Positions 57,008 to 62,657 of a stretch of 64,000 nucleotides of DNA are shown here, one piece after another. The stretch covers positions 32,001 to 96,000 of IMG/VR virus record IMGVR_UViG_3300035193_000067. One strand, given 5' to 3'. Every line of letters starts with the position of its first letter. Within the stretch, counting starts at the first letter, position 1. A program made the position numbers and the translations under genes. The stretch comes from a virus. The notes under the pieces are model-generated. The model was not told the origin of the DNA. It made no database searches and saw nothing but the letters and a program-made list of their open reading frames with translations.

Positions 57008-57032
57008 AGTATAACAGCACGTATGTAGGGAT
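57008..57032 (-). promoter_or_regulatory. candidate late promoter
   Basis: Minus strand ATCCCTACA-N10-TATACT. Confidence 0.55.
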
Positions 57033-57046
57033 ATTAAAGTGAGGAA

Positions 57047-57856
57047 CTATTCAGTGAGGTGCTTGAGAGCAAAGTCTTTAACTGTCGGATATCCTGCATT
57101 GCTGGCAAGGTACTCCCAGTCAAGATCCTTCAGATCAGATTCAATAGTTTCAATTTCATCGATCATGTCACGAGCTTTAATTCTATCCGCACCCTGGTCT
57201 TTTTCAGATCTCAGGCACAAACCTACTACACGAGGATCAGGCTCATTTGCATTCAGAATTTTCTCTTCCTTGGAAACTTCTTCATCTTCTTCAGGCTTAG
57301 CATCAGAAACAGATCTCCTGTTCATCAGTGCCGAAAATTTATCCTGTGCATTCATCATCTCTTCTTCGGCAGATGTACCAAACCGCTTAGCCAATTTTTC
57401 AAAATAATCATAATACTCTTCCTCAGATACGAGTCGAAGGATTGAAGGTTTGCGGTTAATCATTGCGCGTAATTCCATAGAACCTTTAATACCGTCAAAT
57501 GGTACAAACTGAGTCAGATTCATAGGATGCTTAACCCTGGGGATGTTGATAAAAATAGGCTCGCCCTCATATTTACAGGTTATTGAGATATTGGTAGTAC
57601 CCAGGTTCTGAATATAGATCTCAGATTCTTCCTCAAAGAGTTTAGTCCAGTTGGTTACAAAGCTGTTAGCGTTTTTTGTCTGTCGTTTAATCATTGTTTC
57701 ACTCTCAATTTCTCCAGCATGCTTTAGCATGAAGGGTTTTTTGCTGAAGACAGTACACTTGCCTGTTTTCAGCAGCATTCTTGCTTTGGCCGGTGATGTT
57801 TTTGAGATAAACTGATTATTTTGATCCAGAACTGGTACAGTTTTATCTGTGGACAT
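57047..57856 (-). CDS. protein with N-terminal PLMP/RRXRR-like domain fused to an unknown domain
   Basis: VPVLDQNNQFISKTSPAKARMLLKTGKCTVFSKKPFMLK parallels the IscB N-terminal consensus V.VLD..G.PLMPT.PA.AR.LLK.GKA.V....PFTI.L. Start placed at 57856 (MSTDK) rather than 57922. Confidence 0.7.
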   Translation of the reverse strand: MSTDKTVPVLDQNNQFISKTSPAKARMLLKTGKCTVFSKKPFMLKHAGEIESETMIKRQTKNANSFVTNWTKLFEEESEIYIQNLGTTNISITCKYEGEPIFINIPRVKHPMNLTQFVPFDGIKGSMELRAMINRKPSILRLVSEEEYYDYFEKLAKRFGTSAEEEMMNAQDKFSALMNRRSVSDAKPEEDEEVSKEEKILNANEPDPRVVGLCLRSEKDQGADRIKARDMIDEIETIESDLKDLDWEYLASNAGYPTVKDFALKHLTE

Positions 57857-57860
57857 TTTC

Positions 57861-57945
57861 CAGCCTTCGCTGATCTCTCCAAAAAAGGAGGTTAAATAGA
57901 GACCTCCCGGTTTGAGGTGCATTATTGCATAGCCTTGGGAGGTTC
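57861..57945 (-). promoter_or_regulatory. structured RNA leader upstream of PLMP-domain gene
   Basis: Stems ACCTCCC/GGGAGGT enclosing AGG/CCT and TGCA-ATAA-TGCA; CTCC-T6-GGAG; CAGC-GAAG-GCTG. Confidence 0.5.
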
Positions 57946-57951
57946 TGTTTT

Positions 57952-57998
57952 AAAAAAGAGGGGAGGGTCACAAAAGGAGGCGAAAAGCAACCCTCCCC
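57952..57998 (-). terminator. intrinsic terminator after major capsid gene
   Basis: GGGGAGGGTTGC...GTGACCCTCCCC stem followed by TCTTTTTT. Confidence 0.75.
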
Positions 57999-58012
57999 CA
58001 AAAAGCTAATGA

Positions 58013-59179
58013 TTATTTGGAACCTTTAGCAACACGGCGACCATCAGGAAGACCGAAGCCTACCATCTCAGTAAACATCCAACCCTTAACGGTTTCACCC
58101 AGAGCATACTTATTGTACGGCTCGCTGAAAAGCTCAATACGCTCACCCATAACACCGAGGTACTCAGGAGAAGTACAAGCATAGAAAGTACCGCTGGGGA
58201 TAACTTCCTGTACGCCAGTACCGGCAGCAGTCAGAATTTGAGCATTCATGATGTTACCAATGTAACCAGACAGCAACAGTTCACGCTCAGTAACCGGATC
58301 AACAGCAGAAGACATGGTTTTAACGATGTCAGAAAGCTCAGAACGGTTAATCAGGAACTGCTCCACCATCAAGCGGTGACGCTCTACCTGGTAACGTACA
58401 TCTTCAAAAGCACCAATACCCAAAGTACTGAAAGTGGTTTCGGTGTTTATAGCAGTGGAAGCAGCATCAAGAGCATTGATAGCAGCTTTGTCTTCCTGCA
58501 ATTCGATTTCCTGACGAGCTGTATCCTGAGCTCTTTCCAGGATGTCAAAATTAGCCTGATAGATGTCAACGATGTCTACAGGAGCAAAAGACGTAATTTT
58601 GAATTCTTCCGGAGTAATGTAGTTGGTTTTGATCCGTGATTCAGGAGTTTGACCATCCTGACCGATGATGTAGGCAACCGCACGAACATCCTTCGGAATT
58701 CTGAACAATTCAGCCTGTCCCAGTTTACGAGGCATGAAAATTCTGCGAGCAAAACCTTCATAGTCCAGGATAGCTTTGATCGGAAGAGAAAGCTCTTGAC
58801 CAATGCGATGGAAGCCACGACCACTCGGATCCTGAATAGCAGCTGTCAGTGCACGTCGTTGCTGCTCAAAAGAGGCTTCAACTTTGGAGGAAGTACGCAC
58901 CATTTGAAGACTGGAAGCGTTCTTTTTCGTTACATCGTTCAAGAGATGAGCAACCTGTTGCAGAACGTCTTTTTTGTCATATGCATTGACTTCACCCTTC
59001 GTATCAAACATACGATTGGCAGTTTTGGCAGCTTTATAACGAGTAGGGTTAAATTCCCCACTGGGATCATAAAGACTCTCTTCTCTTTTCGAAGAAACTT
59101 TTTTAACCGGTTTTACACGCATACGGCTAGGAGCTGTCTTCGAAGCACTCTTACGGAAAGGATTTTTCGTATTCTTCAT
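58013..59179 (-). CDS. major capsid protein (HK97 fold)
   Basis: 388 aa; PIKAILDYEGFARRIF, P.EFKITS.A, AQDTARQEIELQED, GWMFTEMVG...RRVAKG; follows protease/scaffold/decoration genes; strong terminator downstream. Confidence 0.85.
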   Translation of the reverse strand: MKNTKNPFRKSASKTAPSRMRVKPVKKVSSKREESLYDPSGEFNPTRYKAAKTANRMFDTKGEVNAYDKKDVLQQVAHLLNDVTKKNASSLQMVRTSSKVEASFEQQRRALTAAIQDPSGRGFHRIGQELSLPIKAILDYEGFARRIFMPRKLGQAELFRIPKDVRAVAYIIGQDGQTPESRIKTNYITPEEFKITSFAPVDIVDIYQANFDILERAQDTARQEIELQEDKAAINALDAASTAINTETTFSTLGIGAFEDVRYQVERHRLMVEQFLINRSELSDIVKTMSSAVDPVTERELLLSGYIGNIMNAQILTAAGTGVQEVIPSGTFYACTSPEYLGVMGERIELFSEPYNKYALGETVKGWMFTEMVGFGLPDGRRVAKGSK

Positions 59180-60006: not shown

Positions 60007-61734
60007 CTAGCGCTGCCCCTTGTTGAGCGTAGCGAGTTTAACTGCACGCTGGCTCAACGAAGTGCTTCCGACAACTGAGCGGATACTGCCATCTTCTTTG
60101 GTGTTATTAAAGCTCGAAGCAGGAGCTTTTATTTGCATATTAAAATTTCCATCAACAGCTTCCTTACGAGCTGTTTTGGCTGTTTTTGATTTTGAAGAGG
60201 ATTTGGAAAAAGCAGAAGCTTCTACAGGACGTACATTTTGAATTTCAAGATCTTTTTCAATATCGTTACGGTAGTCACTGGATCTCTTCATGAGAGAAGA
60301 AGTACGATTGAGAAGCTGTTCAATAAACGCAGTATGACCTGCACTTGCAATCATCTCTGCCAACTCTGCAGCATCATCCTCATCCATGTCTGAAACTACT
60401 TCATCATCTGTTAGTACATCAAAAGCAGCAATTTTAAACTGGTGCTCATCGTGATTCAGAAGCATACGTGTAGCAGCAATCTTAAAGGATTGAATGAAGT
60501 CAGCTACGAATTTCGTGTTCAAGTCTCTGGCTTCTTTTGTAGCACGACTCTTATACAGCTCTTTAAGGTTAGCCTCTACTGTAGAGTAATCAACTTCAGC
60601 AGCGTCCTGAGTGCTCTCATGAGATGCAGGCATTGCCTCATCAGTTACATCCTCTGCACCATCAAGAACTGAAGAAGGTGTAGCGTCTACTGCTTCATCA
60701 GTGGTTAAATCAACACCCTCATCAACTCCACCTGATTTGTGATTCTCTTTGGAATCAAACTCAGCTTGTGCATCAACAGAATCTGTAGAAGGAGTTTTTA
60801 CTTCCTTAGTATCCGACTCAGCAGAATCAGTTACAGGAGCAGTCACTTCAGGGACTTCAGCATCAGCTGCTAAATCAACACCTTCATCAACTCCACCGAT
60901 AATAGAAGTACCACATTTCTGTGCCGCAGTTTTCAACCCATCAAAAGCGCACCAGGAAGCCACTTTATTAGCTTCACGAGCCAGAGCTTTATCATTACTG
61001 CGAACAGACTCAGAGGCAGTATGAAGGAATACAGGTTTACCTTCATAGGATACGAGGATGTTGCGATCTGCAGTAACTTTAACTCTAAGCTTGGATATAT
61101 CTATAGAACTCTTGATACCAAGAGATTCCGAAGAAGTGACGTCCTCTTCAGACTCATCTTCCTTCAGAGTCTCCAGATCCTCATCGGACTCTGTAGAAAT
61201 CTTCTTAGACCGTGCAATCAGGTCTTTTTTCTCCTCATCCATAGGCTTTTTAGGACCTTTACCAGGCATATCTTTTTTACCCTCAGGACCTTTTCCAGGA
61301 AGCTCTTTTTTATCTTCAAGACCTTTCCCTGGCATATCCTTTTTCATCTCAGGACCTTTTCCAGGTTTCACCTCTTCAGACTCTTCTTCCTCTTCAGACT
61401 CTTCAGACTCTTCAGACTTCTCAGGACCTTTAACAGGCTTCATCTCTTCAGATTTATCTTTAACAGAATCAGTATCAAGCTCCCCGCGATCCTTAAGAAA
61501 TGACAAAACAGCCTCAAACGCCTCATCGGCATTCTGAATGCCTTTCAGTTCGTTTAAAAGTTTGTCAAAACCTTCAGGAGCCTTGGAAGCTGTCCTGGCT
61601 GCGCTCAGCAACTCACGAGTCTCCTGCTCAATAATGCGTTGCTCTGCAGCAGTCAGAGTTACCGATCCTTTTGAATGAAGAGACTGTACTGTTTTCAATA
61701 GTTTCATCGTTTCTTTACCCATAAACAGCCTCAA
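60007..61734 (-). CDS. scaffolding-like / internal head protein
   Basis: Highly charged, low-complexity, internal repeats; between protease and capsid genes. True start may be ATG at 61722. Confidence 0.65.
   Translation of the reverse strand: MRLFMGKETMKLLKTVQSLHSKGSVTLTAAEQRIIEQETRELLSAARTASKAPEGFDKLLNELKGIQNADEAFEAVLSFLKDRGELDTDSVKDKSEEMKPVKGPEKSEESEESEEEEESEEVKPGKGPEMKKDMPGKGLEDKKELPGKGPEGKKDMPGKGPKKPMDEEKKDLIARSKKISTESDEDLETLKEDESEEDVTSSESLGIKSSIDISKLRVKVTADRNILVSYEGKPVFLHTASESVRSNDKALAREANKVASWCAFDGLKTAAQKCGTSIIGGVDEGVDLAADAEVPEVTAPVTDSAESDTKEVKTPSTDSVDAQAEFDSKENHKSGGVDEGVDLTTDEAVDATPSSVLDGAEDVTDEAMPASHESTQDAAEVDYSTVEANLKELYKSRATKEARDLNTKFVADFIQSFKIAATRMLLNHDEHQFKIAAFDVLTDDEVVSDMDEDDAAELAEMIASAGHTAFIEQLLNRTSSLMKRSSDYRNDIEKDLEIQNVRPVEASAFSKSSSKSKTAKTARKEAVDGNFNMQIKAPASSFNNTKEDGSIRSVVGSTSLSQRAVKLATLNKGQR
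60706..60897. repeat. 27-bp direct repeat pair (encodes GGVDEGVDL), 165 bp apart
   Basis: TAAATCAACACC[C/T]TCATCAACTCCACC at 60706-60732 and 60871-60897, one mismatch. Confidence 0.85.
61250..61440. repeat. degenerate 33-bp (KKDMPGKGPE-type) and 9-bp (SEE) coding repeats
   Basis: Protein reads KPGKGPEMKKDMPGKGLEDKKELPGKGPEGKKDMPGKGP and SEESEESEEEEESEE. Confidence 0.75.
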
Positions 61735-62657
61735 ATTCCTGCAGATATGGCAAAGTTTATAGCCTTGGCCACAGATTCTGGAAGAATCCCTGCATTTTTG
61801 ATAGTGTATTTAATCAGCTCTTCCCTATCCTTATCTGTAAGAGATAAGGAAGAAGCAGCTTTTTGAATGCTTAGTAAGCCGTCCTGTATAACAGCCGTTT
61901 TATCTGCAGGATCTGCTACAGCAGACAGTTCCTGATAAACAGTACCAATGCAAAGCTCACCACCTAAACGGTAGGATCCATCAGGCATTTGGTATTCACG
62001 TTTTTGAAATTTATTGCGTACATGATCGCAGAACTGAAATGTGGTAGACGCTACATTTCCACAGACATTACACTGAGTTGCCTCAACATCTGCCCCCATG
62101 GAAAATGTACTAACACTGCCATTTTTGTACGCTGCAGCAAGCGCCTTATCTTTAGTAGTATCTACTGCAATCAATGTCTCGACAAAAACATCTTTTGCAG
62201 GATACGTACCGATGGTTTTGAACACTTCCTCCTGATCCTCAGGAGACGCATCATTATCAGCATTGATATGGGCATCCAGAAGGAAACCTCTGGAGACTTC
62301 TGGGTGTGCTGCATTATGTTCAACAAAATGTGGTTTATTGCGGTAGGTCTCATACGTGAGGCAACCCAACTCAGGACGGAATGCTTTTATTTCATCCCAG
62401 GTCCAACCATCCAGATTGGCATTTAAACGCCCTACAGAGTTGGCTCTGGCAGGTATAAGGAGGTAATCGGAAGGGTCTCTACTAATCCTGTAAGTATCAG
62501 CAACATGCTCAAGACGTTCTCCTAAAGAAAATGAGAGATCGCTTGACTGCTTGTTCATGAAATATGACTCAGCTTTGGATTTACTGGCAGACTTACGCCA
62601 TGAACCTGACGACAAGACTCCCATAAACTCTATTGATGCATATTTTCTAAAACTCAA
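61731..62657 (-). CDS. prohead (capsid maturation) protease with Zn-ribbon insert
   Basis: NANLDGW, KPHFVEH, SRGFLLDA, FSMG...CNVCGN...CDH, ELSAVADPAD; first gene of head operon; TTG start with AGGA RBS. Confidence 0.78.
   Translation of the reverse strand: MSFRKYASIEFMGVLSSGSWRKSASKSKAESYFMNKQSSDLSFSLGERLEHVADTYRISRDPSDYLLIPARANSVGRLNANLDGWTWDEIKAFRPELGCLTYETYRNKPHFVEHNAAHPEVSRGFLLDAHINADNDASPEDQEEVFKTIGTYPAKDVFVETLIAVDTTKDKALAAAYKNGSVSTFSMGADVEATQCNVCGNVASTTFQFCDHVRNKFQKREYQMPDGSYRLGGELCIGTVYQELSAVADPADKTAVIQDGLLSIQKAASSLSLTDKDREELIKYTIKNAGILPESVAKAINFAISAGI

Follow-up and report, generated by a model that had tools for sequence, protein, structure and literature searches.

A PLMP domain of the IscB/IsrB type and an omegaRNA-like tandem-hairpin leader at a nuclease-free gene of large phages

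To our knowledge, no part of the IscB/IsrB nucleases, the ancestors of Cas9, is less well understood than the PLMP domain, which is known only within these proteins, where its role is inseparable from that of RuvC. A reduced, RuvC-free architecture is reportedly found in IshB, proteins of about 180 amino acids (aa) that join PLMP to HNH and are said to have been described by Altae-Tran et al. 2021. Here we analyse a stretch of virus DNA of 64,000 nucleotides (nt), hereafter the window, which corresponds to positions 32,001-96,000 of IMG/VR record IMGVR_UViG_3300035193_000067 (163 kb, 93% complete), and a gene within it that lies directly downstream of the major capsid protein gene and encodes a PLMP domain followed by an unrelated core (the PLMP-core gene). 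It belongs to a family of large phages that retains, under selection and free of any nuclease, the PLMP domain together with an apparent pair of omegaRNA hairpins; the literature searched contained no account of PLMP in a non-nuclease or in a phage protein of this kind. The reading that we favour, argued from sequence and finely balanced, is that the front end of an OMEGA system, the terminal omegaRNA hairpins plus PLMP, may have been fused to an older phage gene, and that PLMP would bind its own leader.

In IsrB, PLMP contacts SL7 and SL8, a pair of hairpins in tandem, and SL7 holds the Shine-Dalgarno (SD) sequence just upstream of isrB (PMC9581776); in OgeuIscB, it recognises the terminal omegaRNA hairpins (PMC9640706). 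Its contacts with RNA in IscB are mainly sequence-independent (PMC9640706), and in IscB/IsrB it packs extensively against RuvC and the TAM-interacting (TI) domain (PMC9581776, PMC9640706). The N-domain of IF3 is a published remote homologue of PLMP (PMC9581776).

The PLMP-core gene lies on the minus strand, which carries every gene in the window. Its parts are as follows.

57047-57856, minus strand: the PLMP-core gene (P0001), a confirmed open reading frame (ORF) of 269 aa
57854..57856, minus strand: start codon of the long (PLMP-core) product, placed by alignment with relatives and by a database protein of exactly 269 aa
57695..57844, minus strand: the PLMP domain (residues 5-54), from the RRXRR profile, IscB matches and fold; per-residue model confidence (pLDDT) 84-96
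57692..57694, minus strand: an internal in-frame ATG (Met55) at the border of PLMP and core; Met in 35/36 loci
57050..57694, minus strand: the conserved core: alpha/beta domain at about residues 66-180 and helical domain at 195-269, joined by an acidic linker

A longer ORF from the upstream ATG at 57922 was rejected, as the extension is not conserved; the start was placed at ATG 57856 because relatives and database gene calls begin MS(T/K).

The N-terminal domain is homologous to the PLMP domain of IscB/IsrB, by profile and by fold. The Pfam family RRXRR (PF14239) matched residues 7-54 at 29 bits (gathering cut-off 25; E 1.2e-6), and since the alignment spans only profile positions 1-48 of 174, the protein is a partial member of this family that has the PLMP part alone. 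RRXRR scored above its cut-off in 50 of the 51 domain-bearing relatives that were scanned (best E 2e-11). A single-sequence phmmer search matched TbaIscB (9k30) at E 3.6e-4, and a profile built from 60 N-domains of the family matched every solved IscB/IsrB, with E-values from 2.8e-16 (TbaIscB 9k30) to 4e-5, at residues ~4-50 of these proteins or, where the construct was tagged or extended, at the corresponding region. An AlphaFold2 (AF2) model was produced from 70 sequences (overall pLDDT 88.6); when it was compared with the PDB by Foldseek, the top nine matches were IscB/IsrB only (probability 0.98-1.00), and VIA-align superposed 51 residues on the IscB PLMP domain with Z 7.8, a root-mean-square deviation of 2.1 Å and 43% identity. 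The tetrad that gives PLMP its name is not conserved in the family; its position reads F16-I17-S18-K19 (FISK) here, and FLSY and similar in relatives. The Ala-Arg helix with the invariant Arg typical of PLMP (A25-R26) is kept in 60/60 sequences. The domain is under purifying selection, with a ratio of nonsynonymous to synonymous substitution rates (dN/dS) of 0.09-0.30 over correctly aligned pairs with enough differences; the pairs L019/L020, L003/L005 and L014/L039 were left out, being misaligned by one or more codons.

Next in the fold ranking came the N-domains of IF3 (6o6d, 1tif; E 0.5-1), whose small fold of beta-sheet and helix is like that of PLMP. This ranking, together with the published likeness, lends some weight to an alternative that we consider unlikely but still to be reckoned with, in which PLMP, in the manner of an IF3 N-domain, would bind some other RNA (tRNA, the ribosome, or other phage or host mRNAs), while the hairpins of the leader described below would act alone. 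The fold scores on which this would depend are weak, far below those for IscB/IsrB (probability 1.0), and unlike IF3 the PLMP-core protein has no IF3 C-terminal domain.

No nuclease accompanies the domain. After residue 55 of the window protein, neither RuvC, HNH nor any other Pfam family was matched, and the AF2 model contains no RNase H fold in that part; RuvC and HNH were likewise without a Pfam match among 70 family members. The same test on a true phage iscB (locus L027) returned RRXRR at 1e-65 plus HNH. No invariant acidic or His residue was found in the family alignment, no Y1 transposase (Y1_Tnp) anywhere in the 163-kb record, and no second RRXRR match in that record, so that the gene is single. 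An earlier note on this DNA, made by a model from the sequence alone, had claimed an IscB-type N-terminal domain whose tetrad reads FISK, with neither RuvC nor HNH in the protein and no IS200/605 transposase nearby, and all of this is borne out by the profile, fold and record-wide searches.

Compared with IscB/IsrB (7UTN, 7XHT, 8CSZ, 8DMB, 9K30), the PLMP-core protein is alike in its N-terminal PLMP domain, and its gene is alike in its place immediately 3' of tandem hairpins with an SD-like GGAG and an AAC-stem-AG signature. Unlike IscB/IsrB, it lacks RuvC, the bridge helix, HNH and the TAM-interacting domain, its leader appears to have neither a guide segment nor a full omegaRNA scaffold, and its gene is a single-copy one in a fixed syntenic position after the capsid gene, without an IS200/605 transposase. 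Unlike IshB, in which the HNH nuclease is kept, the partner of PLMP here is a probably non-enzymatic phage protein. As a side observation, automatic cluster labels of the ESM Atlas, taken unchecked, pair RRXRR (PF14239) with the tRNA-modifying enzyme QueH in Chloroflexota and include RRXRR-only proteins of ~170 aa; these clusters may be other non-nuclease contexts of PLMP.

An exhaustive search for the family, whose members belong to large phages, gave 157 clusters at 50% identity. The domain was present as called in 93 of the 150 clusters listed. The DNA of seven 'core-only' representatives was inspected, and in six of them an in-frame PLMP domain lay upstream, the gene caller having taken the internal ATG; gene callers often start members of this family there, which hides the PLMP domain from annotation. 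The seventh (L066) is a split form, in which PLMP and core are separate adjacent genes (L066:2291-3187, a 65-aa PLMP-only gene, then 12 nt, then the core gene). The sole contig truly without the domain is L024. These counts bear on the reading that the locus is a decaying remnant, an iscB insertion mostly deleted so as to leave a functionless N-terminal tag and leftover hairpins. Such a history would suit a single-copy gene with neither nuclease domains nor transposase; it is near refuted by the persistence of the fusion in no fewer than 93 of the 150 clusters plus six of the seven more checked on DNA, by the low dN/dS, and by compensatory changes that keep both stems of the leader across proteins only 25-50% identical.

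The gap upstream of the PLMP-core gene measures 156 nt (57857-58012), and it is a structured RNA beyond the terminator. Four elements were placed in it.

57875..57893, minus strand: hairpin P1 with its flanks, AAC-CUCC-U6-GGAG-AG (stem-loop 57877-57890), from fold and a 31-locus signature
57861..57872, minus strand: hairpin P2, CAGC-GAAG-GCUG, placed after the SD-like GGAGAG and before the start codon; its stem covaries
57902..57944, minus strand: P1', an ACC...GGU hairpin with an inner stem, then a U-rich run, from fold and sequence
57952..57999, minus strand: an intrinsic terminator-like hairpin after the capsid gene, with a 13-bp stem, a 15-nt loop and then a U-run

The folding z-score of the gap, -2.6, puts the single sequence modestly beyond chance, and the case for the leader therefore rests on comparison with relatives. 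Across 31 distinct loci the same order recurs, (A/T)AC, a C...G hairpin P1, AG, 0-6 nt, then P2, with stems that are diverse yet complementary and that include G-U pairs on the minus strand; P2, for instance, varies between CAGC/GCUG, UAGC/GCUA, AGGC/GCCU, GGGU/ACCC and others. A strict descriptor was satisfied on target in 26 of 30 loci, with an off-target rate of 4e-5 per nt, and a covariance model gave a single match per locus, at the expected place. With default filters, covariance model R2 missed the AT-rich clade; with filters off, its matches there were on target, at E 0.2-6. In an alignment of 13 sequences, 94% of cells were paired and 8 of 11 pairs showed compensatory changes, values reached by 0/500 shuffles, and slid controls collapsed. 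Leaders of ~150 nt occur in a subgroup (L016, L017, L019-L021, L049, L050), and there compensatory changes were seen in 17 of 31 predicted pairs; these longer leaders comprise five helices and the conserved single-stranded blocks GGUGGGU, CAAA, GAGGG and CUGUGYAUG. By contrast, the one contig without PLMP, L024, has only the terminator plus a plain AAGGAGG SD.

We also considered whether the AAC-hairpin-AG motif might be a repeated promoter or regulatory element of the phage. This was rejected, as the genome holds 11 loose matches against ~7 in shuffles, and the element is single-copy. Relatives have a strong hairpin in the same place as the capsid terminator. Of the relatives, L004, the nearest, is the only one with P1'; this hairpin may have been copied from P1 or may serve as a second terminator. 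P1' also coincides with a match to the abiF RNA motif that falls short of the threshold (57902-57942, minus strand; 26 bits, where the gathering score is 37).

For the upstream start, the only good SD-like sequence is the GGAG(AG) of P1, whose pairing partner is an anti-SD-like ACCUCC. The alternative in which PLMP binds some other RNA draws further on this arrangement: the window leader has a single GGAG, which belongs to the 3' strand of P1 and is separated from the AUG by 18 nt that include P2, so that ACCUCC would hide the SD, P2 would shorten the spacer between SD and AUG, and the long form would be scarcer than the short one. Two loci would also suit it, the split L066, which has a PLMP gene without the module, and L010, in which the module is far from the gene, as would the fusion of RRXRR to QueH in the automatic ESM Atlas labels. 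The GC-rich clade argues the other way; it has a second SD nearer the start, and because of this the conserved GGGAGG of its P1 is not needed as an SD. Against that alternative also stand the AAC-P1-AG signature and tandem layout, which are common to the 3' ends of omegaRNAs that PLMP contacts.

That likeness was drawn from L027, which was recruited by its N-domain alone and is a real phage iscB. From its 80 collected relatives, 67 distinct phage-borne iscB loci were counted, and in these relatives the last 75 nt before the start contain a terminal hairpin with the signature AAC-stem-AG(G); one iscB group has the full layout of AAC-P1-AG, a short linker, P2, SD and ATG. An exact AC-C...G-AG hairpin lies within 100 nt of the start in 16/67 iscB loci, against an expectation of 0.008 per locus, an enrichment of ~30-fold. 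When a model of the iscB hairpin only was searched, the PLMP-core leader ranked first (E 5.6e-4) and second, and the model fell on the leader in 5 of 16 loci; in the reverse search, the PLMP-core leader model fell on the same iscB spot in 5 loci (E 0.1-5). The resemblance to omegaRNA 3' ends is confined to a tandem-hairpin module of ~35 nt, a full omegaRNA being 200-400 nt with a guide. The best cross match of the PLMP-core leader model (L077:1789-1818, UUAACC-hairpin-AGAGGU-GGCAC) lies just past an iscB stop codon, and a related hairpin may thereby close the element. The computational checks by which the earlier note could have been overturned, a profile and fold match of the domain and a conserved covarying leader, all turned out positive: the terminator plus three further stems that it had seen in the gap are there at 57861-57999, the tandem P1/P2 upstream is conserved and covaries, and its signature recurs at the omegaRNA 3' end of phage-borne iscB. 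Its suggested comparison with HEARO/omegaRNA models fared worse, as Rfam gave no match for three leaders.

Two further features frame the gene.

58013..59179, minus strand: the major capsid protein gene, directly upstream of the PLMP-core gene (phrog_2522 major head protein, E 1.5e-56)
57008..57037, minus strand: a promoter-like site between the PLMP-core gene and the next gene, TTAATA-18-TATACT with TG

With the capsid terminator ahead of it and the next promoter behind it, the PLMP-core gene is probably transcribed by read-through. In the reading that we favour, an older phage core gene of ~215 aa, with its own SD and ATG, would have gained an OMEGA-type front piece in frame at its 5' end, consisting of the last two omegaRNA hairpins and a PLMP domain of ~50 aa; RuvC, HNH and the TAM-binding parts would not have been kept. 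In transcripts that read through the capsid terminator, the P1-P2 fold would form about the upstream ribosome-binding site, and the long product would bind P1-P2 through PLMP, by analogy with IscB/IsrB, which bind the SD-carrying terminal hairpins of omegaRNA. This binding might limit the protein's own translation or hold the RNA as a bound partner, while the internal start would independently yield a short form without PLMP. Both the binding of PLMP to the leader and the autoregulation are what we infer from this arrangement.

Autogenous repression through a structured leader is familiar from ribosomal-protein leaders and from regulation of the T4 gene 32/regA type, and ribosome-binding sites that are split and bridged by a hairpin from T4 genes 38 and 25. 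The proposed logic would be analogous, with a protein on the structure of its own ribosome-binding site and a hairpin between SD and AUG; these repressors and split sites have no sequence or fold relation to the PLMP-core protein.

Several points weigh against PLMP binding its own leader. The isolated domain may not suffice, since in IscB/IsrB it acts packed on RuvC and TI, and the tetrad, which in IscB contacts RuvC and RNA, is not conserved here. Translation control alone could account for P1 and P2. The module is not clear in L025, L059 and the split L066, though these bear PLMP, L002 has P1 only, and in L010 1.6 kb of ORFs is inserted between module and gene. The apparent association of PLMP with the module draws on negative cases that number one or two, and on sequences that are related to one another. 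With the exception of one match, the RNA scores between the two families are marginal. The iscB-derived model R3, searched on the window, did not include the window's own short AT-rich P1 among 18 matches at E up to 10, and an Rfam scan of the window leader and two relatives' leaders gave no omegaRNA/HEARO match.

The packing of PLMP against RuvC and TI in IscB/IsrB also allows for a clearly unlikely reading, in which the domain is an appendage through which the core binds protein or DNA, such as one that docks the long isoform to a partner, and the hairpins merely stabilise or process the read-through mRNA; given the place of the gene between terminator and promoter, a 5' structure could shield processed read-through RNA. 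The domains that PLMP packs against in IscB are absent here, however, the helix with the invariant Arg is kept throughout, and the signature common with iscB loci would have to be a coincidence despite its enrichment there. Were PLMP and the hairpin pair to bind, as we favour, they would provide a natural minimal PLMP-RNA module for studies of recognition and an example of OMEGA parts exapted as RNA-binding or regulatory cassettes, and would back the suggestion from the IsrB structure that contact of PLMP with the SD hairpin regulates expression. A further elaboration, which we regard as very unlikely, is that the long isoform and the leader would form a stable, nuclease-free, OMEGA-derived ribonucleoprotein that acts in trans late in infection as an RNA-scaffolded or RNA-guided regulator and brings the core to a nucleic-acid target; its RNA would be the leader of ~35 nt here, and of ~150 nt with five helices in some relatives. 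If true, IscB-type modules would have met a third fate, beside transposon nucleases and Cas9.

The order in which the parts came together may be read from the border between them. An in-frame ATG lies 5-15 residues ahead of the core in 35/36 loci, with a GGAGG-type sequence before most. The predicted duplex between this internal SD and the anti-SD had a median of -8.7 kcal/mol, against -2.5 kcal/mol for the in-frame background, and was at or below -6 kcal/mol in 83% of loci compared with 12% of the background. The GGAGG is retained through different reading frames (PRE, LEG, WEE, GGG, RRR), which indicates selection on the RNA. Met55 of the window protein has a weak SD (GAGAG at 57702-57706, GGAGA at 57711-57715). 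An internal start at the border in nearly every locus, with a strong SD in most, makes two isoforms likely, and, as far as sequence can tell, Met55 is the likely start of a PLMP-less short product. Taken with L024 and with the jumbo-phage homologues described next, this fits with an ancestral core gene that kept its own start when the PLMP piece joined upstream.

Homologues of the core without PLMP exist. The family phrog_17686 matched the core weakly (E 1e-4, residues 66-267), and Foldseek against BFVD matched it to uncharacterised proteins of ~210-240 aa from PaBG, Motura, BcepSaruman and other phages, with probability 1.0 and E-values of 3.5e-9 to 4e-5. The PaBG homologue (gp154) was also found by profile (E 1.1e-4); for Motura the profile search gave no match, though BFVD gives a fold match. 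PaBG gp154 and phrog_17686 thus share the fold of core residues 66-269 and a weak profile match, and unlike the PLMP-core protein they lack PLMP. Annotated as hypothetical, gp154 lies among replication and recombination genes, between a primase and a RuvC resolvase and far from the capsid gene, whose neighbours in PaBG are annotated as virion structural protein; a core homologue was looked for beside the capsid genes of PaBG and Motura, and none was there. Because of the BFVD and phrog homologues and the position of gp154, we regard the core as an older, PLMP-less phage protein that is not clearly structural, and because such homologues in PaBG-like jumbo phages coexist with a retained internal start, we take PLMP to have been added to this older gene. 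The earlier note had allowed for an 'ancestral' module; the same two observations point instead to later addition.

Searches of the PDB placed the core no further. The middle domain folded alone gave a best Z of 3.9 and no convincing fold, and residues 195-269 gave generic helical matches only; these weak matches do not amount to a new fold. A feature search of the ESM Atlas with the core gave no usable match. A complex prediction of the PLMP domain with the core scored 0.04, which is no verdict, and it was used as evidence neither way. The core, which lacks conserved catalytic residues, probably serves in binding or regulation and not as a part of the virion.

In this part of the window, the head protease gene (61731-62657) is followed in order by the genes of an acidic scaffold-like protein, of a conserved protein of 262 aa and of the major capsid protein, and then by the 156-nt gap and the PLMP-core ORF. 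The order of 262-aa protein, capsid, gap and PLMP-core gene is kept in most loci with flanks (from IMG/VR, Logan and GenBank), in which the upstream capsid proteins are 54-74% identical, whereas the PLMP-core proteins are only 28-49% identical. Insertions of 0.5-1.7 kb in L013 and L010 are exceptions to this synteny, and L066 and L154 have non-structural neighbours, the locus not being beside a capsid gene; upstream of L066 are adenylosuccinate lyase and dCMP deaminase. The adjacency to the capsid gene that had been noticed at this locus is therefore a conserved position in most loci, while the role in phage morphogenesis proposed along with it is unsupported, because the PaBG homologue lies among replication genes and because L066 and L154 are away from the capsid gene.

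Minor observations were made at three of these places. In L013 a tRNA-Met (CAT) gene (L013:1442-1518) lies between the capsid gene and the leader module. In L010 the ~1.6 kb between the module and the PLMP-core gene (L010:2294-3970) contains small Cys-rich ORFs with a ~45-aa motif that occurs twice, and a promoter-like site, TTGACA-17-TATACT, lies right behind the capsid stop codon. In the window, the scaffold-like protein (575 aa; 60007-61734, minus strand) has an acidic N-terminal half with repeated PGKGPE/KK(D/E)MPGKG units.

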